Assembly: GCA_963814345.1 (NCBI GenBank)
Contig: CAWFCT010000022.1
Location: forward strand, 171,693-235,692
From: an uncultured Gemmatimonadaceae bacterium
GTDB lineage: Bacteria > Gemmatimonadota > Gemmatimonadetes > Gemmatimonadales > Gemmatimonadaceae
Reading direction: 5' to 3'
Length of the DNA stretch: 64,000 nucleotides
The notes below the pieces were generated by a model. The model worked only from the letters and a program-made list of their open reading frames with translations, made no database searches and was not told the DNA's origin. Each line of letters opens with the position of its first letter. Positions within the stretch are counted from its first letter, which is position 1. Position numbers and translations under genes: made by a program. Shown here piece after piece: positions 8,008 to 29,144 of this stretch.

Positions 8008-8010
8008 CTT

Positions 8011-8517: not shown

Positions 8518-8525
8518 TCGGAGCG

Positions 8526-10499: not shown

Positions 10500-10511
10500 G
10501 GGAGCATTTGC

Positions 10512-11132
10512 ATGGAAGAGCTTCATTCCCTGAAGGCGTTGCAGCTGGATGCCCTGCGCGAGGTGGCCAACATCGGCGCCGGGCACGCGGCAACGGCTCT
10601 CTCACAGATGGTCGGGGGCACGATCATGATCAGCGTGCCGCGCATCAACATCCAGCGACTCGACGCCATTGCGCCGATGGTGGCGGCCCCCGACGAGCCG
10701 GTCGCGGCGGTGCTGCTGCACATTCTGGGCGACCTGTCGGGCCGGACGCTCCTCGTGTTCCCGAAGGCGGCGGCGCTCCAGTTGGCCGAGGTGATGCTGC
10801 ACCGGCCGAGCGGGTCGTCGACGGAGCTCGGGGAACTGGAGCAGTCGGCGATCAAGGAAGCCGGCAACATTCTCAGCAGCGCGTACATGAACGCGCTCAG
10901 CGAATTCATGGGCATGCTCCTGCTGCCGTCGCCGCCGGCGCTGGCGGTGGACATGTCGGCCGCGGTCCTCACCACGGCCTATCTGCAGTTCGGCACGAGC
11001 CGGGATTACGTGTTCTGCGTGGAGAGCGACTTCATGCTCCAGGGCGAGGCGGACCGCCTGCGCGGCTTCTTCCTGCTGCTGCCCGACCCGGCATCGCTGC
11101 AGGCCATTCTGCGCGCCATTCGCGTGACGTGA
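10512..11132 (+). CDS. cheC: CheC-family CheY-P phosphatase
   Basis: Two copies of the (D/S)xxxExxN active-site motif: DALREVANIGAG and SAIKEAGNILSS. 206 aa. Confidence 0.8.
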   Translation: MEELHSLKALQLDALREVANIGAGHAATALSQMVGGTIMISVPRINIQRLDAIAPMVAAPDEPVAAVLLHILGDLSGRTLLVFPKAAALQLAEVMLHRPSGSSTELGELEQSAIKEAGNILSSAYMNALSEFMGMLLLPSPPALAVDMSAAVLTTAYLQFGTSRDYVFCVESDFMLQGEADRLRGFFLLLPDPASLQAILRAIRVT

Positions 11133-11133
11133 C

Positions 11134-13824
11134 ATGGCCGCTTCGTCCCCTGGTTCCGCCCACGACCGCGAGATTCTGAGGTCGTTTGCCCGACGCATCG
11201 ATCCGTCGGACGCCGGCGCGCACAACAACCTGGGGGTGTTGTACTTCAACAAGGGGCTGCACGAGGAAGCGGTGCAGGCCTTCATGCGGGCGCTGGAACT
11301 CGATCCCCGCATGGAAGTGGCCCAACGCAACCTCGAGATCGCCTATTTCAACACCGGCTACTACGACCGGCGCGTGCCCGAGCTGCAGGATCGGGTACGC
11401 CGCGAGCCGGCGGACCGGGACGCGCGGTGGGAGTTGGCCCGCACGTACGCCCTGCTCGGCGAGCATCAGCAGGCCGTGGACGAATTCTCGGCGCTGCTCG
11501 CCCACACGCCGGACGACGTGGGCGCGATCCTGCAGTTGGGGCTTGCCGAACGCGCGCTCGGCCACACCGAGCGGGCGCAGCAGTGGCTGGAGCGGGCGCG
11601 GGACCTCGACCCCGACAGTTCGCTGGTCCACTTCTATCTCGGCGAGGTGGCCTACAATCGCGGGCTCAACGACGACGCCCTGGCGTCGCTGGAAATGGCA
11701 CTGGCCCTCAATCCCGACAACTACGACGCCCTCTACCTGATGGGATTCGTGCTCGGCGACATGGGGCGGCAGGAGGAGGCCCGCGCGCTGACCAACCGTG
11801 CCATCAAGCTCAATCCCACGCTGTCGCGCGCGCAGGCGAATCTCTCCATCGACCAGAACAAGCCGGAGCGCTACGAGGCGTTGGTCGGCGGGCGCCGGTC
11901 GCATCGCATGGAGGTGTCCCCCGACGGCCAGTTGGCGCACTACAACCTCGGGCTCGCTTTCCGGCAGAAGGGGTACTACCCCGAGGCGCTGCGCGAATAC
12001 CGGCTCGCCCTCGACCGCGGCGAGGACGAGGACCTCGTGCGGCAGGCGATGGCCGAAGTCCACCTGGTGAGTGGCGACGTGAGCGGGGCGCTGGCGCTCT
12101 ACGACCGGCTCCTCGAGCGCATGCCCGCGAGCCCCAAGCTCTGGAACGAGCGCGGCGTGGCGCTGCACCAGGACGGGCGCGCGGCCGAGGCGGAGGAGAG
12201 CTATCGGCGGGCCATCGCCGCCGACCGGCGCTACGCGCTGGCCCACAACAACCTGGGAGTCGCGCTCGGCCAGTCGGGGGACGGGGATGCCGCGCTCGCC
12301 GAGTTCCGCGCCGCCCTGGATGCGCGTCCCGACCTCGTGAAGGCGCGGCTGAACCTCGCGCTGCTGCTCTACAAGGCCAAGCGGCTGCCGATGGCGCTCG
12401 AGGCATATCGCCAGGTGCTGGCCACCGAGCCGGAACACCCGGCGGCCTGGAACGGCGCCGGCGTGGTGCTCGCCGATTTTCACAAGTTCGAGGATGCGCG
12501 GAACGCCTTTGCGCGGGCCATCCAGGCCCGGCCGCAGTACGCGGAGGCGCACTACAACCTGAGCTTCTGTCTCTCGAATCTGGGCGATTTCGAGGGCGCG
12601 CTGCGCGAGACCAAACTGGCGCTGGAGATGGAGCCGTACTACATGGGGCAGAAGTTCGAGCTCGCCATCGACCTGCAGTACGAGGACCCGGATCTTTCCA
12701 TCCAGCCCGATCTGGGCGGTGAGGCCCATACCGCGGAGGCGATCGAGGCGTTCGACTTCGACGCCGGCCTGCTGGACTCCGTGTTCACGCAGCTGGCGCC
12801 GGCGCCGGGGCCGCTGCCGCCGGTGGAGACGGACCCGTACAAGATGGCGGCCGACTTCCTGTCCAAGGGGCTCGTCGAACGGGCCCAGATGGAGGTGCGG
12901 CGGGCGCTGGCCCAGGGCGCCGACTGCGTGGCCGGTAATGTGCTGCTCGGCCAGACGTTCATGCGACAGGGGGTGTACGGGGAGGCACTGGAGCGTTTCC
13001 GCGAAGCCCGCCGCGCGGCGCCCGACCACCCGATGGCGATGCACGGCGAGGCGCGCTGTCTGCTCAACCTGGGACAGGGCGCGGCGGCGCTGCCCCTCGT
13101 CGAGAAACTGGTGCTGCATGCCTCGGAGGACATCGACACGCTGATGCTCGCGGCCGGCGTCCGCGCCGCGGCGGGCGATCCCGCCGCCGCGCTGGCCACG
13201 CTCGACGCGGCCCGCCGCGTGGCGCCGATGCGGGCCGACGTGCATCGTGAGATGGGCGACATCGCGCGGCGGCTGGGCGACCTGGAAGGCGCGATCATCA
13301 ACTATCGCAACGCCCTGGCGCTCGATCCGCAGTTCGCCGGCGTGCGCTACGAACTGGCGCATCTGCTGATCGAGAAGCGACAGCTGGCGGCGGCGGAGTA
13401 CGAGTTGCTCTCCGCCCTGGAGACGGTGCCCACGTATGCGCAGGCCACGCTGGAGTTGGCCCGGCTGCGCCGTATGACCGGGCGGGCCGAATCGGCGCTG
13501 CCGCTGCTCATCGAACTCCTGCAGCGCGACCCGTACCACTTCGACGCCCTGATCGCCCTCGGGGAGACGCTCCTCGCGCTCGGGCGCAAGGAGGACGCGG
13601 TCACCGCGTTCGCCCGCGTGCTCCGCTTCGATCCCCACCATGTGGGCGCGCTCTACCACGAAGGCGTCCTGTTCGCCGAACGCCGTCACTTTCGAGAAGC
13701 CATCGACCGGTGGGAGCAGGTGCGCACGTTGGCGCCGGCCACCGAATACGCCCGCCGGGCCCGCCGCGAGATCCGCTCGGCCACCGACCTGCAACGCATC
13801 TTCGCTGAACGCGCAACCACCTGA
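11134..13824 (+). CDS. Large tetratricopeptide-repeat (TPR) protein, 896 aa
   Basis: TPR-like 34-aa repeats run end to end (e.g. AHNNLGVLYFNKGLHEEAVQAFMRALELDP, ALAHNNLGVALGQSGDGDAALAEFRAALDARP). No other domain was recognised. It starts 1 nt after the cheC stop. Confidence 0.8.
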   Translation: MAASSPGSAHDREILRSFARRIDPSDAGAHNNLGVLYFNKGLHEEAVQAFMRALELDPRMEVAQRNLEIAYFNTGYYDRRVPELQDRVRREPADRDARWELARTYALLGEHQQAVDEFSALLAHTPDDVGAILQLGLAERALGHTERAQQWLERARDLDPDSSLVHFYLGEVAYNRGLNDDALASLEMALALNPDNYDALYLMGFVLGDMGRQEEARALTNRAIKLNPTLSRAQANLSIDQNKPERYEALVGGRRSHRMEVSPDGQLAHYNLGLAFRQKGYYPEALREYRLALDRGEDEDLVRQAMAEVHLVSGDVSGALALYDRLLERMPASPKLWNERGVALHQDGRAAEAEESYRRAIAADRRYALAHNNLGVALGQSGDGDAALAEFRAALDARPDLVKARLNLALLLYKAKRLPMALEAYRQVLATEPEHPAAWNGAGVVLADFHKFEDARNAFARAIQARPQYAEAHYNLSFCLSNLGDFEGALRETKLALEMEPYYMGQKFELAIDLQYEDPDLSIQPDLGGEAHTAEAIEAFDFDAGLLDSVFTQLAPAPGPLPPVETDPYKMAADFLSKGLVERAQMEVRRALAQGADCVAGNVLLGQTFMRQGVYGEALERFREARRAAPDHPMAMHGEARCLLNLGQGAAALPLVEKLVLHASEDIDTLMLAAGVRAAAGDPAAALATLDAARRVAPMRADVHREMGDIARRLGDLEGAIINYRNALALDPQFAGVRYELAHLLIEKRQLAAAEYELLSALETVPTYAQATLELARLRRMTGRAESALPLLIELLQRDPYHFDALIALGETLLALGRKEDAVTAFARVLRFDPHHVGALYHEGVLFAERRHFREAIDRWEQVRTLAPATEYARRARREIRSATDLQRIFAERATT

Positions 13825-13826: not shown

Positions 13827-14969
13827 ATGGCGATCGAAGGCCCACTTCGCGAACTCGGCATTCACGACGTCTTCCAACTGCTCGATCTGAGCCGGAAGAC
13901 GGGCACGCTTCGCGTGCGGTCGGAGCTGCGGGATGACGAGGGGGTGGTGCACTTCGCCAACGGCCGCGTGGTGCACGCCGGCATTCGCAGTCTGCCGACC
14001 TCGCTGGAAGGCATCCTCGTGTCGGCGGGCCGCGTGAGCGAGGCCGACGTCCAGGCGGCGCGGGAGCTGGTGGGGCCCCGGGGAACGCCGGCCCAGCTCG
14101 CGGACGCCCTCGTGTCGAACGGGGCGGTGTCGCAGCGCGAAGTGGAACGGCAGGTGCGGCGGCAGATCGAGTCCGTCGTCTTCGAACTGATCTCGTGGCG
14201 CGAGGGATTCTTCTCGTTCGAAGAGGTGGCCGCGCCCGACCTGCCCGTGGACAGCCGGATCAGCGTTTCGACGGAATCCCTGCTCATGGAGGGGGCGCGG
14301 CGCATCGACGAGTGGTCGCGAATCGCGGACACGGTGCCCAACCTCCAGATGGTGCCCGTGTTCGCGACGGCCGATGATGGTCAGGGCGCGCAGCTCGATC
14401 TGCTGCCGCACGAGTGGGAAGTGCTGACGATGATCGATGGAACGCGCGACCTGCGGGGGATTGCCGGCGGGCTGGGGCGGAGCGAATTCGAGGTCGCCAA
14501 GATCGCCTACGGGCTGATCACCACCGGGGTGGTGGCGCTGGAGCCCCCGACGGCGATGCCGCGCGAGACCGAGGCGAGCCGCGAGGCCGGCGCCGAGGCG
14601 CTCCGCCGCGCGCGCGAGTCGCTGGCCTGCGGCGAGTACGCGGCGGCGCTCGAGGCGGGCCGGTCCGCGATCGAGACGCAGGGCACCGAGGCGCGGCTGG
14701 TGACGGCGCGCGCCCTCGTGAAATTGGAGCGCCATGCCGATGCCGCCGAGGAACTCCGGCGGGCCGTGTACGCCGATCCGCTCACGCCACGCGTACATCT
14801 CGATCTCGGATTCGCCGCCGTGAGCACGGGAGAGTTCGCCACGGCGCGCGCGAGTTGGGAGCACTTCCTGCGATTGGCCTCCGGTGGAGCCGACGCCGCC
14901 CGCGCCCGCTCGGCCCTGGACGCGCTGACCCGACTCATGAATCTGCTGGAGGCGCACGCCGATGGCTGA
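13827..14969 (+). CDS. PATAN (DUF4388) domain protein with C-terminal TPR region
   Basis: The N-terminus GPLRELGIHDVFQLLDLSRKTGTLRV...GVVHFANGRVVHA is the DUF4388/PATAN signature. The C-terminal third is TPR-like. Confidence 0.75.
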   Translation: MAIEGPLRELGIHDVFQLLDLSRKTGTLRVRSELRDDEGVVHFANGRVVHAGIRSLPTSLEGILVSAGRVSEADVQAARELVGPRGTPAQLADALVSNGAVSQREVERQVRRQIESVVFELISWREGFFSFEEVAAPDLPVDSRISVSTESLLMEGARRIDEWSRIADTVPNLQMVPVFATADDGQGAQLDLLPHEWEVLTMIDGTRDLRGIAGGLGRSEFEVAKIAYGLITTGVVALEPPTAMPRETEASREAGAEALRRARESLACGEYAAALEAGRSAIETQGTEARLVTARALVKLERHADAAEELRRAVYADPLTPRVHLDLGFAAVSTGEFATARASWEHFLRLASGGADAARARSALDALTRLMNLLEAHADG

Positions 14970-15819
14970 CGACATCCGGCGCTGGAGCGAGGAACTGGCG
15001 CGCGACCCGGGCAGCCTGGCGTTTCTGCTGCTCGGGGAGGCACTGCGCCGCCAGGGCGACCTGGAGACGGCGCAGCGTGTTGCCGTTCACGGGCTCAAGC
15101 GGCATCCGCACCACGCCGACGCGCACGACCTCCTGGCCCGCATCTACGCCGACCAGGGGCAGGTGGACCGGGCGGCGGAGGAGTGGGAGATGACGCTCCG
15201 CATGACGCCCGAGCATCCGGGAGCGCTCAAGGGGATGGCGTTCGTCTGCTTCCAGCGGCAGCAGTTCGAGGAAGCCGAAGACTACCTGCGTCGTGCGGCG
15301 CTGGGCGACGCGCCGGATTCCGGCATCCGCGCCGCCCTGGACACCGTGCGGCGCAACTCGACGACGGTCGACGCACCGGAGCTCGAGCCGGCGGTGGATG
15401 CGGAGGCCGATGCGGATCCCCAATTGGTGTTCGCGCGCATCCTCGAGACGGAAGACCGGACGGCGCTCCTGCTCGACGGATCGGGATTGGTGCTCGCCGG
15501 CGCCTACCTGACACCCGACGGTGACGACGTCGCGGCGGAGGTGGGCGCGCAACTGAGCGGCGTGTCGGAGGAAGCGGACCGTGCGACGCGGCATCTCGGT
15601 ATCGGTGAGTGGACGTCGATCGTGTTCGAGACGGAGGCCGCGGTGGTGGCCATGGCCCCGGCGGCGGAGGGCGGGCTGCTCGTGCTCGCCGCGTCGCGCG
15701 CGACGCCGCTGGGGTTGCTGCGGCGGCTGCTCGACCGGTGCGCCGAGCAGGCGCGCCGATGGATGGCGTGGCACGACGCGGGCGGGCCCGGCGCCGCGCG
15801 GCCAGGGGACGGCGCATGA
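14962..15819 (+). CDS. TPR + Roadblock/LC7 fusion protein
   Basis: TPR repeats occupy the N-terminal ~110 aa. The C-terminal ~110 aa (ETEDRTALLLDGSGLVLAGAY...EWTSIVFETEAAVVAMAPAAEGGLLVLAAS) has the Roadblock/LC7 (MglB-like) pattern. The start overlaps the previous stop by 8 nt. Confidence 0.7.
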   Translation: MADDIRRWSEELARDPGSLAFLLLGEALRRQGDLETAQRVAVHGLKRHPHHADAHDLLARIYADQGQVDRAAEEWEMTLRMTPEHPGALKGMAFVCFQRQQFEEAEDYLRRAALGDAPDSGIRAALDTVRRNSTTVDAPELEPAVDAEADADPQLVFARILETEDRTALLLDGSGLVLAGAYLTPDGDDVAAEVGAQLSGVSEEADRATRHLGIGEWTSIVFETEAAVVAMAPAAEGGLLVLAASRATPLGLLRRLLDRCAEQARRWMAWHDAGGPGAARPGDGA

Positions 15820-16163
15820 GTTCGCCGTTTCGGGAGATGCTGCATTCGCTCATGCGACTGCGTGGAGTGTTGGCCACCATGCTCGTGGACGAGCACGAGG
15901 GCATGATCATCGATTCGATTCTGCAGGTCGGTCAGGACGGCGACCGCGTGGCGGCCCTCGCCGCGTCGCTCCACCGCAAGGCGCGCAAGTCGGCCGAGGC
16001 GGCGGGGATGGGCGGCGTCTCGTACATGCAACTCGATGCGGCGGGCGGGCGGATCTGCGCGGCCGGGCGCGGCACGATGGTGCTGGTGGTCGTGGCGGCA
16101 CCCACCGCGAACATCGGTCTGGTGCGGGTGGAGACGCTCAAAGCCGTGCAGACGCTGCCATGA
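15816..16163 (+). CDS. Roadblock/LC7-domain protein (stand-alone; MglC-like candidate)
   Basis: I chose the ATG at 15816 (ATGA overlap). 115 aa: LRGVLATMLVDEHEGMIIDS...MVLVVVAAPTANIGLVRVE. The ORF-track start at 15609 is an out-of-context extension that overlaps the upstream gene. Confidence 0.75.
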   Translation: MSSPFREMLHSLMRLRGVLATMLVDEHEGMIIDSILQVGQDGDRVAALAASLHRKARKSAEAAGMGGVSYMQLDAAGGRICAAGRGTMVLVVVAAPTANIGLVRVETLKAVQTLP

Positions 16164-16636
16164 CCATCCGCGTCGTCGAACCCTGGGTCGAAGCGCCGCT
16201 GAAGCGATTCGTGGACGATGCTCGCGTGACCATCGCCCTGTTGTTGCTGCCGAGCGGTCAGGTGCTCGCGGAGCACGGGTTCACCCGGTCGCTCGACGTC
16301 GCCGCGGCCTGCGCGCTCGCGGCCGCCATCCACGCGTCGGGGGGCGAACTGGGCCGGATGCTCGACGGCCGGCCCTTCAGTGGGCTGCACCATGCGGGCC
16401 AGGACCGCCAGATCTTCCTGGGCGAGGCGCGGACGCCGCGGGGTACGTACATTTTCCTGACCGTCTTCGATCAGGAAAGCTCACTCGGGCTCGTTCGGCT
16501 GTATTTTGACGAATTCGTGGCGAACCTGAGTGCCGCGGCCCCCGAAGGCGGCGGCGCCTCCTCCGACACCGTTCTCGCCGACACCTTCGAGCGGGATCTC
16601 AACCGCAACCTGGCCGCGTTGTTCGGTCGGGGCTGA
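16160..16636 (+). CDS. mglB: MglB, the Roadblock/LC7 GTPase-activating partner of MglA
   Basis: I chose the ATG at 16160 (ATGA overlap). TVFDQESSLGLVRLYFDEF closely matches the Myxococcus MglB motif VIFDNRTSLGLVRLRIKK as I recall it. It sits immediately upstream of mglA, as in the mglBA operon. Confidence 0.8.
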   Translation: MTIRVVEPWVEAPLKRFVDDARVTIALLLLPSGQVLAEHGFTRSLDVAAACALAAAIHASGGELGRMLDGRPFSGLHHAGQDRQIFLGEARTPRGTYIFLTVFDQESSLGLVRLYFDEFVANLSAAAPEGGGASSDTVLADTFERDLNRNLAALFGRG

Positions 16637-16656: not shown

Positions 16657-17262
16657 GTGCCGCTCGTCAACTACGCCACCCGCGAGATCACCTGCAAGAT
16701 CGTCTATTACGGACCCGGCCGGTCCGGAAAGACGACCAACTTGCATCACATCTACGGGCAGGTGCCGGAAGACCGGAAGGGGAAGATGGTGTCGCTGGCG
16801 ACGCAGACCGACCGCACCCTGTTCTTCGATTTCCTGCCGCTCGACCTCGGCACCATTTCGGGGTTCACCACCAAGTTCCAGCTCTACACGGTGCCGGGGC
16901 AGGTGTACTACCAGTCCACGCGGAAGCTGGTGCTGCAGGGGGCGGACGGCGTGGTGTTCGTGGCGGACAGCCAGACGCGCCAGCTCGACGAGAACATCGA
17001 GAGCTTTCAGGACCTGCACGCCAACCTGGCGGATCAGGGCGTCGACGTGCGCGCGGTGCCCCTCGTGCTCCAGTACAACAAGCAGGATCTGCCGCGCGAT
17101 CTGATCATGGCCACCGAGGAGCTGCGGGACGCGATCAACTTTCGCGGCGTTCCCGATTTTCCGGCCGATGCCCTGCACGGCCCGGGCGTGTTCGAGACCC
17201 TGCGTGGCATCTCCGAACTCGTGCTGAAGCGGCTGAGTTCTCCCTCACGTGCGGCGAGGTAG
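16657..17262 (+). CDS. mglA: MglA, Ras-like polarity/motility GTPase
   Basis: Similarity to MglA runs the full length: NYATREITCKIVYYGPGRSGKTTNL, TDRTLFFDFLPL, LYTVPGQVYY, GVVFVADSQ, QYNKQDLP. GTG start at 16657. Confidence 0.92.
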   Translation: MPLVNYATREITCKIVYYGPGRSGKTTNLHHIYGQVPEDRKGKMVSLATQTDRTLFFDFLPLDLGTISGFTTKFQLYTVPGQVYYQSTRKLVLQGADGVVFVADSQTRQLDENIESFQDLHANLADQGVDVRAVPLVLQYNKQDLPRDLIMATEELRDAINFRGVPDFPADALHGPGVFETLRGISELVLKRLSSPSRAAR

Positions 17263-17265: not shown

Positions 17266-19224
17266 GTGTCGTTGGACACCCGGATGCGGTTCGAGCACTT
17301 CGAGGCGGGCGCGGCCAATCACGAGGCCGTGTCCGCGGGGCGCGCCGTCGCCCGATCGCCGGGGCAGAAGCACAACCCGCTCACCTTCTTCGGGGTAACG
17401 GGAGTCGGCAAGACGCATCTGATGCAGGCCATCGGCCATGCCGTGGTGGAGGCCCAGCCGGCGCTGCGCGTGGAGTATCAGACGGCGGACGAATTCGCGA
17501 AGCAGCTCCACGCCGCCGTCGCCGCCAGCCAGACCGACGAGTACATCCGGGGATGGGCGCGGGTGGACGTCCTGCTGCTGGATGACATTCAGGGGCTCGC
17601 CGACCAGCGTGAGGCGCAGTCGGAACTGCTGCGGCTACTCGAGGCGATGCAGAGCATGGAGCGCCAGGTGGTGATGACCTGCGATCGTCCGCCGGCCGAG
17701 ATCGCCGGGTTCGATCCCGCCCTGGTCTCGCGGATCGCCGGCGGCCGGATCGTGGAGATCGGCGCGCCCGACGCCGCGACGCGCGTGGCGATTCTCCGGG
17801 CGCGGTGCCGGGAGCGGGACGTGATCCTGGAGCCGGGCGTGGTGGAGGAGATCGGGCGCATCGAGACCGGCAACGTGCGCGAGCTGCACGGACTGCTCCA
17901 TCGCATCGTCGACTTCCAGTCGCTGGGCGACGAGCCGGTGCACGCCGACGACGTGCTGACTCTGCTCGACCACGCGCCCGAAGCGCGGGCGGCAGCGGGC
18001 GACTCGGCGCCGTCCGCGGCCACGGGTGCCCTCGATTTCGAGAGCTTCCTCACCGACATCGCGAGCGCCGTGACGGCGCACGTCGAAGGGTGGAAGTCGC
18101 ACGTGGCCGAGGCCGTGGCGGGGTGGCAGTCGGCGGGGTACCGCACCAAGGCGCTGGAGCGGTTGTTGGACGAACCGTCGCCCCCGCCCAACTACGAGGC
18201 CGTGCTGCGCGGCTTCGGCGCCACGGTTCGCCGGCTCAAGGAGCTGGAGTCCGAAGCCGTCGAGGCCGATCCGTCGGTGGCCGGCCACGACGTGTTCCGC
18301 GACCCCGAGCGCATGCGCGAAGCCGAGGCCATGGTGCAGCGTGCGCGGGCGGGCGCCGTGGACCTGCCCGGCCCCTCGGTGGAGTTCTCGCGCGCCGGGT
18401 TGGAGGTCGGCAAGTCGAATCAGGCGGCCGTGCGTGCGGCCGACGCCGTGGCGGCCGAACCGGGCAGCCGGTACAACCCCCTCGTCATCATCGGTCCCGA
18501 GGGGACGGGAAAGACGCACCTGCTCAACGCGCTGGGGCACGAACTGGTGAACGCCAGTGGAGGCGCGACCGTGGTGGCGTGCGTGACCGGCCAGCAGTTC
18601 GCCGACGAGTTCATCGCCGCCCTGCGCGACGGGACGCTCAACCAGTGGCGCCGGCGGTACCGGCGCGTGGACGCGCTGCTGATGGACGACCTCCAGGCGG
18701 TGGCCGGCAAGGAGCGCACCCAGGACGAGGTGTTCGAACTGTTCGGTGACCTGCTCGACGCCGGCAAGCAGATCGCGTGCACCGCGGCGCAGTTGCCCCG
18801 GGACATGACCGGCCTCGACGAGCGGCTCCGCGTGCGGTTCGAGGGTGGGCTCGTGGTGGAGTTGGCGCCGCCGGACGTCGCGATGCGCGAGCAGTTGTAC
18901 CGGCGGTTCCTGGACGGGGTGGCGGCCGATCAACTCGACCCGCTGGCGCGCTATCTCGCGTCCCGGCCCGCCGCGGGCGTGCCCGACATCATCGACACGA
19001 TCCATCGCCTGTCCGTATCGGCCGATGCGGTGGGGGCGCCGCTGTCGTTGGACGTGGCGCGGCGGGAACTCGAGGGGCCGGAGCCCGTGGCCGCCCCGAT
19101 GCCGACGCCGGCGAGCGCCGCCCCGGTGGTGCGGGCGGCCAGTGACATGTTCTTCCTCGACGACGAGAAAGTGGTCTGGGAGTTGCGCGACGTCGCGTCG
19201 CGCGTGGTCGAGGAGCTGGGCTAG
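17266..19224 (+). CDS. Protein with two tandem DnaA/Hda-type AAA+ ATPase modules and no DnaA domain IV
   Basis: Module 1 (aa ~8-215): F.HFEAG.AN, NPLTFFGVTGVGKTHLMQAIG, VLLLDDIQ, TCDRPP, NVRELHG. Module 2 (aa ~375-560): NPLVIIGPEGTGKTHLLNALG, ALLMDDLQAVAGKERTQDEVF, GKQIACTAAQLP, LRVRFEGGLVVEL. No DnaA-box-binding helix-turn-helix is present. GTG start at 17266. Confidence 0.8.
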   Translation: MSLDTRMRFEHFEAGAANHEAVSAGRAVARSPGQKHNPLTFFGVTGVGKTHLMQAIGHAVVEAQPALRVEYQTADEFAKQLHAAVAASQTDEYIRGWARVDVLLLDDIQGLADQREAQSELLRLLEAMQSMERQVVMTCDRPPAEIAGFDPALVSRIAGGRIVEIGAPDAATRVAILRARCRERDVILEPGVVEEIGRIETGNVRELHGLLHRIVDFQSLGDEPVHADDVLTLLDHAPEARAAAGDSAPSAATGALDFESFLTDIASAVTAHVEGWKSHVAEAVAGWQSAGYRTKALERLLDEPSPPPNYEAVLRGFGATVRRLKELESEAVEADPSVAGHDVFRDPERMREAEAMVQRARAGAVDLPGPSVEFSRAGLEVGKSNQAAVRAADAVAAEPGSRYNPLVIIGPEGTGKTHLLNALGHELVNASGGATVVACVTGQQFADEFIAALRDGTLNQWRRRYRRVDALLMDDLQAVAGKERTQDEVFELFGDLLDAGKQIACTAAQLPRDMTGLDERLRVRFEGGLVVELAPPDVAMREQLYRRFLDGVAADQLDPLARYLASRPAAGVPDIIDTIHRLSVSADAVGAPLSLDVARRELEGPEPVAAPMPTPASAAPVVRAASDMFFLDDEKVVWELRDVASRVVEELG

Positions 19225-19225: not shown

Positions 19226-20842
19226 ATGGCCATCAAGGGCAGCTTGAAGGAGGCCAGCCTCCCCGACGTGCTCCAACTCCTGGCGATGGGCCGGAAGACC
19301 GGATGCCTGAGCGTCAACCACCGGACGAATTTCGGCTACATCTATTTCGACAAGGGGCGCATCTCGTACGCGTCGATCGTGAACCGGCGCGACCGCTTGG
19401 GCGACATGCTGGTGAAGAACGGCATCATCTCCGCCGAGCAGCTCAAGTCGGCCATCGAGGCGCAGGATCAGGAGCGCGAGCGGCGCATCGGCGAGCTGCT
19501 GGTGGAGATGGGCTTCCTGTCGCGCGACGCGCTGCGCCAGCACATCCGCGAGCAGATCGAGGAGGCGGTGTACTTCCTGTTCACCTGGAATCAGGGCTCG
19601 TTCAACTTCGAGGCCGACGTCCAGCCGGACGAGCAGGAATTCCTGGTGTCGATCAATCCCGAGTCGCTGCTGCTCGAGGGCGCGCGACGCGTGGACGAGT
19701 GGACGCTCGTCGAGAAGAAGATCCCCACGTTCGACATCGTGTTCGAGGTCGACCGGCCGAAGATCCTGGCCAGCGACCTCGATCTGACGCCGGAGCAGCG
19801 GGGGCTGCTGGAGCTGGTCGACGGCCGGCGCGACGTGCAGCAGATCATCGACGCCTCGGGCATGGGCGAGTTCGAAGTGGGGAAGGTGCTGTACGGCCTC
19901 GCCACCACCGGATTTCTGCACCGCATCGGCACGTCGAAGGCGGGCGACGCCCAGGTGTCGGAAGCCCGGGTACAGGAGCATTACAACCTCGGCGTCGCGT
20001 TCTACAAGACGGGGATGTTCGACGAAGCGGTGCGCGAGTTCCGGCGCGTGATGGACCTCAAGCCCAACGATCCCTCGGCGCAGTTCTACCTCGGGCTCGT
20101 GCAGCTGCGCCAGGAACGGTGGCACGATGCGCTGGCGACGTTCGAGGCCGCGGTAGCGCGCCCCGGCGCCACCGCTGCGGTGTATCACAACCTCGCGTAC
20201 GCGCTCGAACGGTTGGGGCGCCTGGCCGAGGCGCAGCGGGCGCTGCAGGAGGCGTCGGCCCGCAGCCACGGGGCGAGCCCGCAGATCGAAACCTCGATCG
20301 GCATCGTCGCCCTACGCTCCGGCGACCTGGCGGCGGCCGATGAGGCGCTGACGGCCGCGCGCCCGTTGTGGTCCCGGGCACCGTCATCGGCCTGGTATCA
20401 CTACGCGGCACTCACGGCGGCCCTGCTCGGCGACCTCGCGCGGGCGCAGACCATTCTCGACGAAGCCGTGGGCGCGCATCCGCACAGCGCCGTGCTCTAC
20501 AACAATCTTGCCGTGGTGCGCGAACGCCAGAACGCCGGTGAGGCGGCGGCGGCGGCGCTCGACCGGGCGCTGTCGGAGGATCCCTCCGTGCCGCAGGTGC
20601 ACAAGAACCTCGGCGACGTGGCCTACCGCGCCGGGCGGTTCGACGAGGCGCTCGAGTCGTACCAGCGCGCCGTCAAAGCGAAGCCGGATCTCGGGGACGA
20701 CGTCTACCTCAAGCTCGGCAACATCAAGTTCCGCCAACAGCAGAAGGAGGAGGCGCTGCGGCTCTGGCAGCGCGCGCTCGAACTCGATCCGACCAACGCC
20801 ATCGTGCGTACCAACCTCGACGCCGTGCGGCAGGCGCTCTGA
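19226..20842 (+). CDS. PATAN (DUF4388) domain protein with long C-terminal TPR region (second paralog)
   Basis: I chose the ATG at 19226. The N-terminus GSLKEASLPDVLQLLAMGRKTGCLSV...GYIYFDKGRISYA is the PATAN signature. TPR repeats run from about aa 250 to the end. The ORF-track start at 18845 overlaps the upstream gene. Confidence 0.78.
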   Translation: MAIKGSLKEASLPDVLQLLAMGRKTGCLSVNHRTNFGYIYFDKGRISYASIVNRRDRLGDMLVKNGIISAEQLKSAIEAQDQERERRIGELLVEMGFLSRDALRQHIREQIEEAVYFLFTWNQGSFNFEADVQPDEQEFLVSINPESLLLEGARRVDEWTLVEKKIPTFDIVFEVDRPKILASDLDLTPEQRGLLELVDGRRDVQQIIDASGMGEFEVGKVLYGLATTGFLHRIGTSKAGDAQVSEARVQEHYNLGVAFYKTGMFDEAVREFRRVMDLKPNDPSAQFYLGLVQLRQERWHDALATFEAAVARPGATAAVYHNLAYALERLGRLAEAQRALQEASARSHGASPQIETSIGIVALRSGDLAAADEALTAARPLWSRAPSSAWYHYAALTAALLGDLARAQTILDEAVGAHPHSAVLYNNLAVVRERQNAGEAAAAALDRALSEDPSVPQVHKNLGDVAYRAGRFDEALESYQRAVKAKPDLGDDVYLKLGNIKFRQQQKEEALRLWQRALELDPTNAIVRTNLDAVRQAL

Positions 20843-21666
20843 TGACGATCGCCGAGCCGCAGGACGAGGAGTTTCAGGCGCTGCTCGACAAGATCTCGCG
20901 CGATCGCGGCTTCCACTGCGCCAGCTACAAGGCGACCTGCCTGCGCCGCCGGGTCGGGGTGCGCATGCGGGCACGCGGGCTGCACCGCTACGTGGATTAC
21001 GCGGGTCTGCTCGACGCCGACCTGGGGGAATACGACCTGCTGCTCGATGCGTTGACGATCAACGTCACGAAGCTGTTCCGGAACCCCGAGGTGTACCACG
21101 CCATGCTGCGCGACGTGGTCCCCGCGGTGTGGGCAGCGGCCCCGTCCCGCATTCGCGTGTGGAGCGCCGGGTGCGCGTCGGGCGAGGAGCCGTATTCGCT
21201 GGCCGCCCTGTTCCACCTGCACGCGGCGGCGCGGGGCGAACTCCACCGCCTGCCGCGCGTGGAGATTCTGGGCACCGACATCGACCGTCGCAGTCTCGTG
21301 GCGGCCGAGCGCGGCGAGTTCGAGGAGCGCGATTTCAGCGAGACACCCGAGGCCTGGCGGTCGGCCTATTTCGCGCCCGCGGCGCCGTTCACGGTGGTCC
21401 CCGAGTTGCGCCGGCTGGTGAAGTTCCGGCAACATGATCTGTTGCGCGAGCCCCCGCCGCAGGGCGGGCACGACTTGATCGTGTGCCGAAATGCGATCAT
21501 CTACTTCGATCGGGCGTCGCAGGAGCGGCTGTTCGAATCCTTCTACTCGGCGTTGGCCCCCGGAGGGTTCCTGGTACTCGGTAAGGTGGAAACGCTTTTC
21601 GGTCGTGCGCGGCAGTTGTTCCGCCCCGTAGACGCCCGCGAACGGATCTTCGTGCGCCCCGCATGA
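20842..21666 (+). CDS. cheR: CheR chemotaxis protein methyltransferase
   Basis: N-terminal CheR helical domain (YKATCLRRRVGVRMR) plus a SAM-binding domain (RVWSAGCASGEEPYSLA, ILGTDID, DLIVCRNAIIYF). Confidence 0.9.
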   Translation: MTIAEPQDEEFQALLDKISRDRGFHCASYKATCLRRRVGVRMRARGLHRYVDYAGLLDADLGEYDLLLDALTINVTKLFRNPEVYHAMLRDVVPAVWAAAPSRIRVWSAGCASGEEPYSLAALFHLHAAARGELHRLPRVEILGTDIDRRSLVAAERGEFEERDFSETPEAWRSAYFAPAAPFTVVPELRRLVKFRQHDLLREPPPQGGHDLIVCRNAIIYFDRASQERLFESFYSALAPGGFLVLGKVETLFGRARQLFRPVDARERIFVRPA

Positions 21667-22145
21667 GCGAACAACGGGTCGGGATCGCCGATCTCGCGGT
21701 CGCCGCGGGGGAGGGAACGCTCTGCACGCTCGGGCTCGGCTCCTGCGTCGCGATCGTGCTCTACGACGCGGTGGTGCGGGTGGGCGGGCTGGCGCACGTC
21801 CTGTTGCCCGAACCGGCCATGTCGCGCCTGCACGACAACCCGGCGCGCTTCCCGGAGACCGCCGTGCCCGCCCTCGTCGCGCGGATGCGGGAGCTCGGCG
21901 CCGACCCGGCCCGGATGACGGCCCGCCTCGTCGGCGGGGCCAGCATGTTCTCCAGCCTGCTGCCCCGCGGCGCGCCGACGATCGGCGGGCGAAACGTGGA
22001 TGCCTCGCGGCAGGCGCTGCAGCGAGCCGGCATCACGATCGCGGGCGAGGACGTGGGCATGGAGCATGGGCGCAGCGTCTACCTGCACATCGCCGACGGC
22101 CAGGTCGAAGTGCGCTCGCTCGCGCGAGGGAGTCGTGTCCTCTAA
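21663..22145 (+). CDS. cheD: CheD chemoreceptor glutamine deamidase
   Basis: 160 aa. The GLGSCVAIVLYD motif contains the catalytic Cys. ATGA overlap with cheR. Confidence 0.85.
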   Translation: MSEQRVGIADLAVAAGEGTLCTLGLGSCVAIVLYDAVVRVGGLAHVLLPEPAMSRLHDNPARFPETAVPALVARMRELGADPARMTARLVGGASMFSSLLPRGAPTIGGRNVDASRQALQRAGITIAGEDVGMEHGRSVYLHIADGQVEVRSLARGSRVL

Positions 22146-23202
22146 GCCCTCCGTCCTGGTGGTGGACGATAGCGCGCTCATGCGGCGCGTGATCGCAGAG
22201 CTGGTCACCGAATCGGAGGAGTTCACCGTGGTCGGCGTGGCGCGCAACGGGCGGGAGGCGATTGCGCGCGTGCAGGCGCTCAACCCCGACCTCGTGACAC
22301 TCGACATCGAGATGCCGGAGATGGACGGGCTGCAGGCGCTGGCGCAGATCATGCGCGATGCCCCCCGCCCGGTGGTGATGCTGAGCGGGGCCGAGACCAT
22401 GGATGGGCGCGACGCCGCGCTACGCGCGCTCGAACTCGGCGCCGTGGACTTCGTGCGCAAGCCGTCGGGCCCGATCAGTCTGGACCTCGCCGTCGTGGGC
22501 GAGCGGTTGCGCGGCGCGCTCCGAGCCGCCGCGCAGGCGAACCTGCGCGGCCTGCAGACGCCGGTGCGAAGCCCCGGGGCGCCCCGCCGTGGGCCAGGCC
22601 GGCCGGCGGCGTCCCGCCCCACGCGCGCCGTGGCGATCGCGGCCTCGACCGGCGGCCCGCGCGCCCTCACGCAGGTCCTGCCGGGGCTGCCGGCTGCGCT
22701 CGACGCCGCGGTGTTCGTGGTGCAACACATGCCCGCTGGATTCACGCGCAGCCTGGCGCAGCGGCTCGACGCGATGGGGCCGCTGCCCGTGCACGAGGCC
22801 GAGGCGGGCCAGGTCGTCCGCAGCGGGCATGTATACGTGGCGCCCGGCGGCAAGCACATGCGCGTGGCCGACGACGCCCAACCGGTGATCGTGCTCGACG
22901 AGACGCCGCCCGTGTGGGGCGTGCGACCGGCCGCCGATCCCCTCTTCCGGTCGGTGGCCGCCGTGTTCGGCGACCGGTGTGTAGGCGTGGTGCTCACCGG
23001 CATGGGACGCGACGGCGCCGACGGGCTGCGGGCCATCCGCGATGCGGGGGGCCGCCGCGTCGTGCAGGACCGGGACAGCTCGATCATCTACGGCATGCCG
23101 CACGCCGCGCTGGAGGCAGCGGGCGCCGACCGCGTGGCGCCGCTGGCGAGCGTCGCGGCCGCTGTCGTCGCGCTGCTCGCCACGGTGGGTGAGCCGGCAT
23201 GA
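22135..23202 (+). CDS. cheB: CheB protein-glutamate methylesterase (REC + esterase)
   Basis: I chose the GTG at 22135, after GAGGGAG. REC domain: VLVVDDSALMR, LVTLDIEMPEMDG. Esterase domain: AIAASTGGP, VVQHMP, VVLTGMGRDG. Confidence 0.9.
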   Translation: MSSKPSVLVVDDSALMRRVIAELVTESEEFTVVGVARNGREAIARVQALNPDLVTLDIEMPEMDGLQALAQIMRDAPRPVVMLSGAETMDGRDAALRALELGAVDFVRKPSGPISLDLAVVGERLRGALRAAAQANLRGLQTPVRSPGAPRRGPGRPAASRPTRAVAIAASTGGPRALTQVLPGLPAALDAAVFVVQHMPAGFTRSLAQRLDAMGPLPVHEAEAGQVVRSGHVYVAPGGKHMRVADDAQPVIVLDETPPVWGVRPAADPLFRSVAAVFGDRCVGVVLTGMGRDGADGLRAIRDAGGRRVVQDRDSSIIYGMPHAALEAAGADRVAPLASVAAAVVALLATVGEPA

Positions 23203-23996
23203 TCGACGAGCACTGGGGCCTGCTACGCAAACCGTTCGCGAACACGCCTGATCCGGCCTTCGTGTACCACTCCCCGGTGTTCGACGAGGGATTCGCCCGC
23301 CTGCTGTACGACGTCACGGATCTGCGAGGGGGCCTGTCGCTGGTCACGGGCGAGATCGGCTGCGGCAAGACAATGCTCGTGGAGGCACTGCGCGCCCGGC
23401 TCGGCGGCACCGCCTACGAGCCCTGGGTCGTGGAATATCCGCGCCTCACCGGCGCCCAGTTGCTGCAGTTCGTCGCCGGAGCGGCCGCGCTGTCCACCCC
23501 GCCCAAGAACAAGCCCGCCCTGGTGGGGGCGCTGCGGGGCCGGCTGGCCGAGCTGCATGCCGCGGGACGGCGTCCCGTGTTGATCGTGGACGAGGCACAG
23601 TTGGCGAGCCCGAGCCTGCTCGAGGAACTGCGGTTACTCACCAACTTCGAGGACCGAACCGACAAGCACCTCCACGTGGTGCTGCTGGGGCAGCCGGAGT
23701 TGCGCGACCGCGTCGTGAAGCGTCCGCAGATCGACCAGCGCGTGAGCCTGCGGTTCCATCTCGATCCGCTCGACGCCGATGACGTGCAGGCGTACGTCCG
23801 GCATCGGCTGCGGGTGGCGGGGGCGATGCACGAGATCTTCACGGCCGAGGCGCTTGTCGCCCTGGCGGCGCGGAGCGGTGGTGTTCCGCGCGTCGTGAAC
23901 AACCTGGCCATGCAGGCGCTGTTCGTTGGGGCGATGCGCGGACTGCCGCGCGTCGACGAGCGACTGATACACGACGTGGCGGACGATCGGCAATGA
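23199..23996 (+). CDS. ExeA/GspA/MshM-like AAA+ ATPase (AAA_22-type)
   Basis: Walker A LVTGEIGCGKTML, Walker B VLIVDEAQL, and the characteristic N-terminus FANTPDPAFVYHSPVFDEGFARL together with LHVVLLGQPEL. ATGA overlaps at both ends. Confidence 0.75.
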   Translation: MIDEHWGLLRKPFANTPDPAFVYHSPVFDEGFARLLYDVTDLRGGLSLVTGEIGCGKTMLVEALRARLGGTAYEPWVVEYPRLTGAQLLQFVAGAAALSTPPKNKPALVGALRGRLAELHAAGRRPVLIVDEAQLASPSLLEELRLLTNFEDRTDKHLHVVLLGQPELRDRVVKRPQIDQRVSLRFHLDPLDADDVQAYVRHRLRVAGAMHEIFTAEALVALAARSGGVPRVVNNLAMQALFVGAMRGLPRVDERLIHDVADDRQ

Positions 23997-24649
23997 AGAC
24001 ACCCACCATCAGCTACCGCGAATGGCTCCACCGGACGCCGACGCCGCCGGCGTCGGTCGCGCCGGTGGTCGAGCCCGGGCAGCCGTCTCCCGAAGCGCCC
24101 GCGCCTCCGGCCGGGGAGCCGGACGCACACCGCGCCGCGCCGGCGGAGGTGGCCGCTCCCACCAGGCCGCGGCCCGAGGCTGCGCCGGCGCCGGTGCCCG
24201 CGGCGGCGTCTGCGGCGAACGCGGTGGAGCATCTGGTGTTCCGGGTGGGGCGCGAGTTGTTCGCGCTGCCACTCGACGTCGTCGAGGAAGTGTTCGACAT
24301 CGACCGCATCCAGCGCATTCCGGAGATGAGCCGCACGATGTTGGGGGTGCTCACGTTGCGCGGCGCCACCGTGCCGCTGTACGCGCCGTCGATTCCGCTG
24401 GGCGTGCCCGATAGCGACCATCGGGCGGCACTCGTCTTCGTTCGGGCGAGAGGGACGGTGGCCCTCGCCGTGGATGATGTGGACGACGTGCTGGAGATCG
24501 CCGGCGACGACGTGCAGCGCCCGCCGCTGGATTTCACCGACGGCCTGCTGTCGGGCGTCACCCGTCGTGGCGCGGACCTCATCGGCGTGCTCGATGCCGA
24601 CGCGCTCATCGCCGCCTGTCGCGCCGAACCGGTGCTGGAGACCGCATGA
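23993..24649 (+). CDS. CheW-like protein with ~70-aa Pro/Ala-rich N-terminal extension
   Basis: The N-terminus is PTPPASVAPVVEPGQPSPEAPAPPAGEP...PRPEAAPAPVP. The CheW fold follows: LVFRVGRELFALPLDVVEEV, MLGVLTLRGATVPLY. Confidence 0.8.
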   Translation: MKTPTISYREWLHRTPTPPASVAPVVEPGQPSPEAPAPPAGEPDAHRAAPAEVAAPTRPRPEAAPAPVPAAASAANAVEHLVFRVGRELFALPLDVVEEVFDIDRIQRIPEMSRTMLGVLTLRGATVPLYAPSIPLGVPDSDHRAALVFVRARGTVALAVDDVDDVLEIAGDDVQRPPLDFTDGLLSGVTRRGADLIGVLDADALIAACRAEPVLETA

Positions 24650-25128
24650 CCAAGCCTCGTATTGCCAAGATCGTCTGGTTCCGCCTTGGTTCGGACTACT
24701 TCGCGGCCGACATCTTTTCGGTGGAGCGTGTGCTGCGCTACCAGCCGCCGACCACGGTGCCCAACGTGCCCGAATGGATCGAAGGGGTGATCGAGTATCA
24801 GGGGCGGGTGGTCCCGGTGGTGAGCCTGCGCCGCCGGTTCCAGCTCCCCGCCGTGCCGGCCACGCCCGAGACCCGCGTGCTGGTCCTCAAGTCGGGCGAT
24901 GAGTGGGTGGGGGTGGTGGTCGACGCCGTGCTCGAAGTCGCCAGCTTCGATGAAGCGTTGCTGTCGCCCCCGCCGCCGCTCTTCCGGGGGCTCGCCGGTG
25001 AATACCTGCGGGGCATCGTCCGCCTGGACGACCGCCTGCTGATCTATCTCGACGTCGACCGTCTGCTGTCGTCCGACGACCGGCTGGCCCTGGAGCGTGC
25101 GACCGGGGAGGCGCTGCCGAATGGCTGA
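24646..25128 (+). CDS. cheW: CheW-like coupling protein
   Basis: Motifs WFRLGSDYFAADIFSVERVL, PEWIEGVIEYQGRVVPVVSLRRRF and VLVLKSGDEWVGVVVDAV. Confidence 0.85.
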   Translation: MTKPRIAKIVWFRLGSDYFAADIFSVERVLRYQPPTTVPNVPEWIEGVIEYQGRVVPVVSLRRRFQLPAVPATPETRVLVLKSGDEWVGVVVDAVLEVASFDEALLSPPPPLFRGLAGEYLRGIVRLDDRLLIYLDVDRLLSSDDRLALERATGEALPNG

Positions 25129-25966: not shown

Positions 25967-25998
25967 CCGGACGGCGCGCCCGACCGGCCGTGCGCGCC

Positions 25999-29123: not shown

Positions 29124-29144
29124 GCGCACCTCGAGGTCGTTCGC

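Follow-up and report, generated by a model that had tools for sequence, protein, structure and literature searches.

A tandem DnaA-type AAA+ protein encoded between mglA and a PATAN-TPR gene in Gemmatimonadaceae appears to be an initiator-type ATPase reused for cell-polarity or pilus control

In the bacterial replication initiator DnaA, domain I mediates the interaction with DnaB, DiaA and HobA, domain III is an AAA+ ATPase module that also binds single-stranded DNA (ssDNA), and domain IV is a helix-turn-helix that recognises DnaA boxes. To our knowledge, the known derivatives of domain III (Hda, DnaC/IstB) still act on replication or transposition. Here we analyse a window of 64,000 nucleotides from an uncultured Gemmatimonadaceae bacterium (GenBank assembly GCA_963814345.1, contig CAWFCT010000022.1, positions 171,693 to 235,692 of the forward strand), in which a gene at window positions 17266 to 19224 encodes a protein of 652 residues with two DnaA domain III modules. 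The gene follows mglA in a cluster that also encodes PATAN, TPR and chemosensory (Che) proteins, and its ATPase appears to have been reused for the control of cell polarity or of pili. What is new is the architecture and the context; the ATPase module itself is known.

Several described systems share part of this organisation. Like the tandem protein, Hda and HdaA are DnaA-derived AAA+ proteins that have no DNA-binding domain and keep the arginine finger, and Hda is the precedent for DnaA domain III modules that act on other AAA+ proteins and not on DNA. However, Hda is a single module of ~230 residues found in a different context, with a beta-clamp-binding motif at its N-terminus that we take to be QL[SP]LPL. 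Two AAA+ modules in one polypeptide are also characteristic of the type II AAA+ proteins p97/Cdc48, NSF and ClpB, in which one site hydrolyses while the second serves mostly to bind nucleotide and to keep the assembly stable. These are members of the classical clade, and their hexamers are closed, stacked rings equipped with pore loops; over its full length, the tandem protein matches classical AAA+ proteins in Foldseek only at the generic AAA+ level, with a template modelling (TM) score of at most 0.35 and a root-mean-square deviation (rmsd) above 24 Å. On the side of cell polarity, it has been reported that MglA-GTP recruits the TPR protein SgmX, activating type IVa pili (PMC11580455), that PATAN domains determine the polarity of pili and have the N-terminal domain of PilB and PilC as binding partners (bioRxiv 10.1101/2021.06.11.447907), and that mglA and mglB genes often adjoin PATAN genes (PMC4316618). 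The present locus resembles the MglA-MglB/TPR systems (SgmX of M. xanthus, and those of B. bacteriovorus) and the PATAN systems in that MglA, Roadblock/MglB-type, large TPR and PATAN proteins are encoded in one operon, but the literature found on those systems does not mention a DnaA-type ATPase.

Architecture and ancestry of the tandem protein

The gene and its parts are the following, with the predicted local distance difference test (pLDDT) of an AlphaFold model and the ratio of nonsynonymous to synonymous substitution rates (dN/dS) among the supporting evidence:

17266..19224, + strand: gene for the tandem DnaA-type AAA+ protein; GTG start, TAG stop, 652 residues, N-terminus aligning with homologues
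17266..17970, + strand: module 1, residues 1-235, DnaA domain IIIa+IIIb (profile and alignment to DnaA)
17971..18033, + strand: variable, low-confidence spacer, residues 236-256 (pLDDT <50, little conservation)
18034..18381, + strand: conserved inter-module helical domain, residues 257-372, with the motifs DF.SFL, W..xGYRT..LE and FRDPER (invariant columns, pLDDT 83-91, dN/dS)
18382..19083, + strand: module 2, residues 373-606, DnaA domain III (profile and alignment to DnaA)
19138..19221, + strand: conserved C-terminal motif, FFLDDEKVVW.L.D..SRVVEELG (alignment; hidden Markov model (HMM) of the tail, ctail)

A preceding sequence-only reading had proposed two copies of the DnaA domain III pattern without domain I or IV, and both points have been borne out. 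The Pfam family Bac_DnaA (PF00308) matches the protein twice (E 8.5e-88), and each half alone finds B. subtilis DnaA domain III (8bv3/8btg) at E ~1e-41, followed by the DnaA proteins of T. maritima and A. aeolicus. No Pfam match to domain I (PF11638) or domain IV (PF08299) was obtained in the 652 residues, the chain starting directly with the N-terminal segment of domain III in the alignment, and tblastn of six canonical DnaA proteins against the 64-kb window returned only the two domain III stretches, with neither domain I nor domain IV. The protein thus differs from DnaA in having no domain I, II or IV, and since domain IV is absent it is unable to recognise DnaA boxes. The reading frame is intact, with a third-position GC of 0.92, typical for genes of this window of 69% GC.

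When the halves were set against other AAA+ clades, no reassignment resulted. The NCBIfam model of DnaA gave 217.6 bits for module 1 (Hda 80.6, IstB 63.6) and 187.4 bits for module 2 (Hda 61.8, IstB 45.5), which places both halves, by profile score, in the DnaA branch and not with Hda or the helicase loaders. Neither module alone passes the cut-off of 343.9 bits of the DnaA equivalog TIGR00362, which is matched only at positions 103-336 of 437; the whole protein reaches 399 bits because two partial matches add up. It remains below the cut-off of the Hda model TIGR03420 (135.7 against 194.8 bits) and below those of the helicase-loader models IstB (105 against 200), DnaC (37.6 against 357) and DnaI (61 against 228), and DnaI in the PDB matches at E 1.9e-7 only. 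The clamp-binding motif of Hda is absent from the N-terminus, MSLDTRMRFEHFEAG, for which the family consensus, by reading, is MQVDxRHRFENY. With 45 family sequences as input, the AlphaFold model reaches pLDDT >90 across both modules, and its best Foldseek match is again B. subtilis DnaA domain III (TM 0.93, rmsd 1.8 Å). In both modules it predicts the initiator-type two-helix insert between beta2 and beta3, with helices 74-86 and 90-98 between strands 69-73 and 102-106 in module 1, and helices 442-455 and 458-466 between strands 437-441 and 470-474 in module 2. With DnaA domain III the family shares the fold, the helical insert, Walker A and B and the Box VII arginines, and mostly sensors I and II as well; it departs from DnaA in having two modules per chain, an extra helical domain, a C-terminal motif and a glutamine at the catalytic-glutamate position of module 2. 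On this basis, the tandem protein is best placed among the AAA+ ATPases of the DnaA branch, as a member that is not an initiator.

Each module is closer to DnaA (mean distances 0.63 and 0.68) than to the other module (0.73). In a neighbour-joining tree of the modules and DnaA, module 2 forms one group (26/29) and module 1 two or three. This tree is distance-based, has very short internal branches and was computed on the modules and DnaA alone. It shows no more than a DnaA origin of the modules and a tandem that predates the diversification of the family. Membership in a defence system was also considered and rejected, as PADLOC gave only short matches at the P-loop level, with no matched stretch passing alone.

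The stretch between the modules had been described as a linker of ~150 residues; it proves instead to be a conserved, folded helical domain, which to judge from sequence and model is new. Residues 257-372 are predicted to be helical with pLDDT 83-91, both in the whole model and in a separate AlphaFold model, and F258, F261, D264, K277, W287, G291, Y292, L324, L327, E328, D335, F344, D346, P347 and R349 are among the invariant positions. This domain has no Pfam match at E up to 10, its profile retrieved nothing significant from PDB sequences, and a Foldseek search of the separate model against the PDB was equally without significant result. In comparisons of the window with the related loci L002 and L003, constraint within the gene is strongest on this domain (dN/dS 0.08 and 0.05, respectively) and declines through module 2 (0.18 and 0.14) and the C-terminal tail (0.23 and 0.22) to module 1, which evolves fast in the window lineage (0.51 and 0.38). 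The gene as a whole is under purifying selection (0.26 and 0.20), while the neighbouring genes have values of 0.05-0.12 in both pairs. The last ~20 residues (consensus EK.VW.WP....R.IEE.) are conserved even among relatives of 30% overall identity. A 'DMFF' near the C-terminus was considered as a clamp-binding motif and dropped, being absent from divergent orthologues.

Copies of the inter-module domain have been detected outside the tandem architecture. In P0226 and P0294 they stand in tandem, N-terminal to a single DnaA domain III module. P0294 is a protein of 839 residues with two to three inter-module domains, one DnaA domain III and zinc ribbons (locus L015, 6050-8569, GCA_964609045.1), on a contig that looks archaeal from the neighbouring genes for eIF2-alpha, S27e, L44e and PAC2. 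P0226 and P0243 join DnaA domain III to DUF835. The helical repeats of another protein, P0206, seemed plausible by eye as relatives of the inter-module domain, but with an HMM E value of 5 they were dropped.

The family is large and spread through the phylum Gemmatimonadota. The word index yielded more than 1,500 matches, the best 120 of which are all of ~645 residues and 50-100% identical, those with names belonging to Gemmatimonadaceae, and an exhaustive search of representatives extended the full-length relatives down to ~30% identity. Among 385 proteins fetched, 182 have the order module 1, linker domain, module 2 and C-terminal motif (by the ctail HMM), a further 35 lack only the C-terminal motif, and most of the remainder are canonical DnaA. 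The architecture of 640-660 residues recurs in hundreds of independent assemblies. Orthologues of 29-53% identity keep gene order and chromosomal site, and those of L012 and L013 (29-42% identity) occupy exactly the same site; because of this identical position, the divergent sequences are to be regarded as orthologues and not as paralogues. A relative of 27% identity is present in L007, a metagenome-assembled genome labelled 'Ca. Cloacimonetes bacterium 4572_55'. In locus L005 of a close relative (7584-9584, MFD05502.bin.2.137), the mglA match is partial and the tandem product, P0013, has 615 residues (81% coverage), a shortening that may reflect an assembly problem or gene decay.

Databases name members of the family 'DnaA/Hda family protein' or 'chromosomal replication initiator protein', and the proteins of ~650 residues that carry the name 'chromosomal replication initiator protein DnaA' in JGI/IMG are mis-named. 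Neither NCBIfam nor Pfam holds a dedicated model for the tandem family. A search of the literature for DnaA-like proteins in an MglA, PATAN, chemosensory or MshEN context found nothing on such a protein, and a comparative study of prokaryotic small GTPases makes no mention of a tandem DnaA-type protein.

Nucleotide sites of the two modules

Both modules were aligned to B. subtilis DnaA and the E. coli numbering was then transferred, the relevant E. coli residues being, as we assume, D269 for sensor I, R281, R285 for the arginine finger and R334 for sensor II. In this alignment the 'TCDRPP' or 'SDR' element, previously taken for the Box VII arginine, coincides with sensor I (D269), and Box VII falls in 'DRLRSRF'. 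The window protein has the Walker A lysine (K49 in module 1, K416 in module 2), the Walker B aspartates (D106/D107 and D474/D475) and the arginine finger (R156 in 'VSRI' and R524 in 'RVRF') in both modules. Sensor I is D140 in module 1 and has been lost in module 2 (A508), and sensor II is R205 in module 1 and has likewise been lost in module 2 (P573). The equivalent of R281 is R520 in module 2; it is module 1, and not module 2, that is without it (A152). The position of the catalytic acid is occupied by D75 in module 1 and by Q443 in module 2. The 'AGKERTQDE' motif of module 2 is DnaA-like, the corresponding 'GKERTQEE' stretch of the family being nearly that of E. coli DnaA. Hence the sequence-only reading was right about the sensor II arginine of module 1 and about Walker A and B of module 2; its statement that module 2 had lost both arginines holds for sensor II and fails for Box VII, where R520 and R524 are kept. 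The ATP site of module 1 together with the arginine finger of module 2 is fully intact.

A census was taken over all proteins that open with module 1, linker domain and module 2 in this order (n=218). The Walker A lysine is found in module 1 of 209/218 and in module 2 of 195/218, and Walker A and B are retained in both modules of ~90% or more of the members. The arginine finger is present in 187/218 (module 1) and 191/218 (module 2), with ~90% keeping both, and the R281 equivalent in 182/218 and 193/218, respectively. Sensor I keeps its aspartate in 195/218 for module 1 and 148/218 for module 2, and sensor II its arginine in 194/218 and 157/218. All 14 scored residues are intact in 118 of the 203 near-full-length members. 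Because most relatives keep them, the loss of sensors I and II from module 2 is a feature of the window sub-clade; the asymmetry proposed between the modules is real in the window protein (A508, P573) and is not a family-wide trait, being confined to relatives of at least 64% identity. In the window lineage the second site thus seems to have degenerated further, through the loss of both sensors, while module 1 evolves fast.

A different asymmetry does extend over the whole family. At the position of E. coli E204 (B. subtilis E183), module 1 carries Asp or Glu in 189/218, compared with 7/218 for module 2, in which 139/218 have Gln; canonical DnaA has Glu in 23/25. It has been reported that the substitutions E204Q in E. 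coli and E183Q in B. subtilis lower the ATPase activity of DnaA (PMC5319796). In several lineages, module 2 has lost Walker A and B, its arginine finger and the whole of module 1 remaining intact. Since the asymmetry at the catalytic glutamate is family-wide and module 2 decays more often, the combination of one hydrolysing and one binding or regulatory site is supported; the earlier suggestion to this effect stands on these grounds, and not on the arginine argument originally given for it. A further idea, that the degenerate residues form one composite interface, was abandoned: all cis and trans combinations of losses are strongly associated across the family and relatedness inflates the association, and because every combination is associated the co-loss test has no discriminating power.

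Genomic context and the link to c-di-GMP motifs

The surroundings of the gene were compared, by tblastn and precomputed Pfam matches, over 13 related loci plus two outgroup loci. In the window, the cluster contains:

7531..11132, + strand: cheW, cheY, cheA and cheC (Pfam)
11134..13824, + strand: large TPR protein of 896 residues, a conserved neighbour (Pfam, locus comparison)
13827..14969, + strand: upstream PATAN(DUF4388)-TPR protein (Pfam)
14962..15819, + strand: TPR-Roadblock (Robl_LC7) fusion protein (Pfam)
15816..16163, + strand: Roadblock/LC7 protein of 115 residues (orthologues carry PF03259)
16160..16636, + strand: Roadblock/MglB-like protein of 158 residues (weak MglB match, E 1.9e-4)
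16657..17262, + strand: mglA, 201 residues (matches M. xanthus MglA, 6h17, with 250 bits at E 1e-73)
19226..20842, + strand: downstream PATAN-TPR protein of 538 residues, its ATG 1 nt after the tandem-gene stop (NF053729)
19394-19465 and 19484-19555, + strand: two 24-residue motifs RLGxxLVxxG..L...L..Q, RLGDMLVKNGIISAEQLKSAIEAQ and RIGELLVEMGFLSRDALRQHIREQ, read in the PATAN domain of this protein
20842..26964, + strand: cheR, cheD, cheB, AAA_22 ATPase, two cheW, TPR and Peptidase_MA_2 genes (Pfam)
23199-23996, + strand: the AAA_22 ATPase between cheB and cheW (TIGR03015, 179 bits, under the cut-off of 324)
25097-25966, + strand: the TPR gene of the Che cluster (Pfam)
25873-26964, + strand: the Peptidase_MA_2 gene (Pfam)

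The gene therefore does lie directly after a true mglA, as had been read, although the spacer between the mglA stop and its GTG is 3 nt and not 4. With 3 nt before it and 1 nt between it and the PATAN-TPR gene, it is probably translationally coupled to both neighbours. The claims of Che surroundings (CheW, CheY, CheA and CheC upstream; CheR, CheD, CheB and two CheW downstream) and of a context unusual for a DnaA or Hda homologue are likewise supported; canonical DnaA stands, by comparison, with dnaN-recF-gyrB. The Roadblock genes at 15816-16163 and 16160-16636 each overlap a neighbour by 4 nt, the second replacing a listed open reading frame at 16036-16509. The latter lies in the wrong frame; rich in arginine and without alignment to the orthologues, it is an artefact.

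The usual order across the loci is cheW, cheY, cheA, cheC, large TPR, PATAN-TPR, TPR-Roadblock, Roadblock, Roadblock-like, mglA and the tandem gene, followed by PATAN-TPR, cheR, cheD, cheB, AAA_22, two cheW, TPR and Peptidase_MA_2. Its flanks are constant, with ileS, a dksA-like gene, lspA and rluD on one side, and a TPR gene of 580 residues, rsmH and the dcw division cluster on the other. L013 is without cheA, cheW, cheR, cheB and cheD and retains everything else. L007 has Che genes, AAA_22, the large TPR gene and a PATAN gene directly upstream, without MglA. In nine independent contexts, PATAN is present in 8/9, the large TPR protein in 8/9, MglA in 6/9 and CheA in five, and because of these counts the tightest partners of the tandem protein are the PATAN and TPR proteins, and not MglA or Che. 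MglA and the Che genes are dispensable neighbours.

The most constant neighbour is the downstream PATAN-TPR gene (19226-20842). Its product passes the curated model of the MshE-related c-di-GMP motif, NF053729 (57.3 bits, cut-off 38), and is accordingly a predicted c-di-GMP receptor. The tandem 24-residue motif RLGxx(L/V/I)(L/V/I)xxG(L/V/I)(L/V/I)xxxxLxxxLxxQ was defined by Wang et al. (PMC5013675); in the window, the spacer between RLGDMLVKNGIISAEQLKSAIEAQ and RIGELLVEMGFLSRDALRQHIREQ is of 6 residues, not 5. The MshEN-type motif is kept in all Gemmatimonadota orthologues examined of this protein, and the upstream PATAN-TPR protein (13827-14969) has no match to NF053729.

A second link between DnaA domain III and MshEN is found in fusion proteins. 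The search of representatives retrieved the giant proteins P0206 (1,990 residues) and P0215 (1,876 residues), in which MshEN is followed by a DnaA domain III, ~1,250 residues of helical structure and a second DnaA domain III. In locus L014 (1-25923, GCA_030620115.1, JAUXFG010000024.1), three MshEN-DnaA-III fusion proteins lie in a type IV pilus cluster with the order PilD, two MshEN-DnaA-III proteins, an MshEN protein, P0206, a TonB_C protein, PilB, an unassigned gene of 330 residues, PilT, PilC, PilS, a second PilT-like ATPase and PilR. Like the tandem family, these fusions have one or two DnaA domain III modules, no domain IV and a link to MshEN, so that two kinds of link join DnaA domain III without domain IV to the MshEN motif: neighbouring genes in Gemmatimonadota and protein fusion in L014. 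Unlike those of the tandem family, the L014 modules are canonical, with the Glu kept and all motifs intact; they stand ~1,250 residues of helical repeats apart, and the inter-module domain is undetectable there.

Some features of the neighbourhood may be recorded in their own right. The AAA_22 ATPase resembles the ATPase associated with the XrtA/PEP-CTERM system and also adjoins cheA in L007. The Peptidase_MA_2 gene ends the conserved cluster in nearly all Gemmatimonadota loci, Che-less ones included. Positions 1057-7458 of the window hold a purine nucleoside phosphorylase-family gene, ileS, a dksA-type zinc-finger gene, a pair of lspA genes and an rluD-like gene, the lspA paralogues being adjacent and overlapping (5510-6103 and 6036-6614). 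Positions 27372-30189 contain a TPR gene of 583 residues and rsmH, and the dcw cluster comes next by synteny with L013.

A proposed polarity switch and its alternatives

The reading to which we give most weight, though we hold it tentatively and somewhat short of probable, is that the tandem protein would serve a polarity module of MglA, PATAN and TPR proteins as an ATP-dependent switch or scaffold. The members of this module would be MglA, the three Roadblock/MglB-like proteins, the PATAN-TPR adaptors and the large TPR protein, under the control of a Che-type pathway and of c-di-GMP, whose signal may enter through the MshEN-type motif of the downstream PATAN-TPR protein. A head-to-tail assembly like that of DnaA is envisaged, in which the arginine finger of one module would complete the ATP site of the next. 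Module 2, with Gln at the catalytic-Glu position, might then provide a stable, long-lived or regulatory ATP site, and module 1, acidic at this position, the hydrolysing site that resets the assembly. Initiator-clade AAA+ modules normally form open spirals and both ATP sites and fingers are conserved in most members, for which reasons an open head-to-tail polymer is no less likely than a closed version of the intramolecular pseudo-dimer that the sequence-only reading had suggested. The inter-module domain and the C-terminal motif would be likely docking surfaces for TPR, PATAN or MglA proteins, and the most likely output would be the polar placement or activation of the type IV pilus machine or of another polar machine. 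Genes for type IV pili and for flagella are known from Gemmatimonas genomes, and the cells divide by fission and budding (PMC7844134).

Several observations weigh against this proposal. The tandem gene is the least conserved gene of the cluster across the loci; in L013, its product is 29% identical to that of the window, compared with 73% for MglA and 51% for the downstream PATAN-TPR protein. At the same chromosomal site, L010 has lost MglA, all Che genes, the Roadblock genes and the inter-module domain, most of which is replaced by a connector of 60 residues in an orthologue of 585 residues (P0288, 10001-11758, GCA_036556205.1), although the tandem gene, PATAN-TPR, TPR and Peptidase_MA_2 are kept. 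L008 has no PATAN neighbour and no Che genes, only the large TPR gene standing upstream. The window contains no pilus genes, and its Che cluster could equally serve flagella. The inter-domain geometry of the AlphaFold model is unreliable (predicted TM score 0.47), divergent Gemmatimonadales have lost the two arginines of Box VII, and such plasticity at the catalytic positions (complete in 118/203) fits a scaffold better than an obligatory enzyme. Finally, the MshEN-DnaA modules of L014 show no special sequence affinity to the tandem family and are not matched by the linker HMM; because they look canonical and have no such affinity, the MshEN parallel may reflect convergent or parallel recruitment.

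Among the alternatives, the strongest would make the protein a mostly static pseudo-ATPase scaffold that bridges the TPR, PATAN and MglA proteins, with nucleotide playing at most a structural part, and ATP not being cycled, in the window lineage. Module 2 of the window protein without catalytic acid, sensor I or sensor II, module 1 without the R281 equivalent and with a dN/dS of 0.38-0.51, the repeated loss of catalytic residues across the family and the fact that the non-ATPase inter-module domain is the part of the gene under most constraint all speak for such a scaffold, which we nevertheless consider unlikely, as the window protein retains the Walker A Lys and the Walker B Asp-Asp in its two modules, like ~90% or more of the members, and as its module 1 ATP site and module 2 finger are intact. 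A replication regulator of the Hda type, whose modules would dock on genuine DnaA and couple initiation to polarity, chemosensory state, division or budding, is less likely again. It would agree with the greater closeness of both modules to DnaA than to each other, with the DnaA-specific features retained (both Box VII arginines and the initiator two-helix insert), with the 'GKERTQEE' of module 2, and with a locus fixed directly upstream of the dcw cluster in a group in which Gemmatimonas divides by fission and budding. Nevertheless, the N-terminal clamp-binding motif is absent by reading, the Hda model falls short of its cut-off, the arginine fingers are degenerate in many members, the constant neighbours are PATAN, TPR and MglA genes and not replication genes, and the MshEN-fused DnaA domain III modules sit in a pilus cluster.

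The remaining explanations are weaker. A role as an accessory of the chemosensory pathway, in array assembly or adaptation and with an output to flagella and not to polarity or pili, would be consistent with the position of the gene between cheC and cheR in most loci, with the second ATPase (AAA_22) of the cluster and with the L007 relative, which has Che genes and no MglA; it is very unlikely, given that L013 and L010 have lost cheA, cheW, cheR and cheB yet keep the tandem, PATAN-TPR and TPR genes, and that the Che genes are missing from L008. Only a faint chance is granted to an ATP-dependent binder of single-stranded nucleic acid, either acting on DNA imported by type IV pili or tethering the polarity module to the nucleoid. 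Taking the ssDNA-binding residues of E. coli DnaA to be those of the H/B motifs, V211 and R245 among them, module 2 keeps equivalent positions at K482 (K in 151/218), R484 (R in 183/218) and I450 (V211; I in 161/218), and pilus systems are associated with DnaA domain III in L014; on the other hand, two of these residues are missing from module 1, where E corresponds to R245 and H to V211, the residues kept may be structural, and no competence or recombination genes lie nearby. That the gene is an artefact, a mis-assembled or decayed dnaA or the only dnaA of the genome, can practically be dismissed. The closest canonical DnaA clusters retrieved did come from other phyla (Actinomycetota, Chloroflexota), but the same architecture occurs at a syntenic site in hundreds of independent assemblies, the gene is under purifying selection and has an intact frame with a third-position GC of 0.92, and a protein without domain IV cannot recognise DnaA boxes.

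The proposal of an ATP-dependent polarity switch can be carried further in a more speculative form, which is possible but on the doubtful side. DnaA-type modules may have been recruited, probably repeatedly, as nucleotide-dependent switches of polar machines. A head-to-tail polymer of the tandem protein would alternate stable (module 2, Gln) and hydrolysable (module 1) interfaces under the control of MglA-GTP and of the c-di-GMP-binding PATAN-TPR protein, and would serve to position type IV pili or the budding pole, or to activate them. The same logic might be hard-wired elsewhere in the MshEN-DnaA-III fusions beside pilB, pilT and pilC, and the inter-module domain would be a new partner-binding domain in common with archaeal DnaA domain III proteins.

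If the proposed role is correct, the initiator clade of AAA+ proteins would extend into the control of cell polarity and motility, and an ATP-driven component would be added to the MglA switch, so far described as a system of GTPase, GTPase-activating protein and guanine nucleotide exchange factor. The inter-module region defines a new conserved helical domain, and the residues K49, D75, R156, K416, Q443 and R524 offer themselves for testing. For the Gemmatimonadota, which are abundant in soil, little studied and partly budding, a polarity module beside the dcw cluster would provide an entry into their cell biology.

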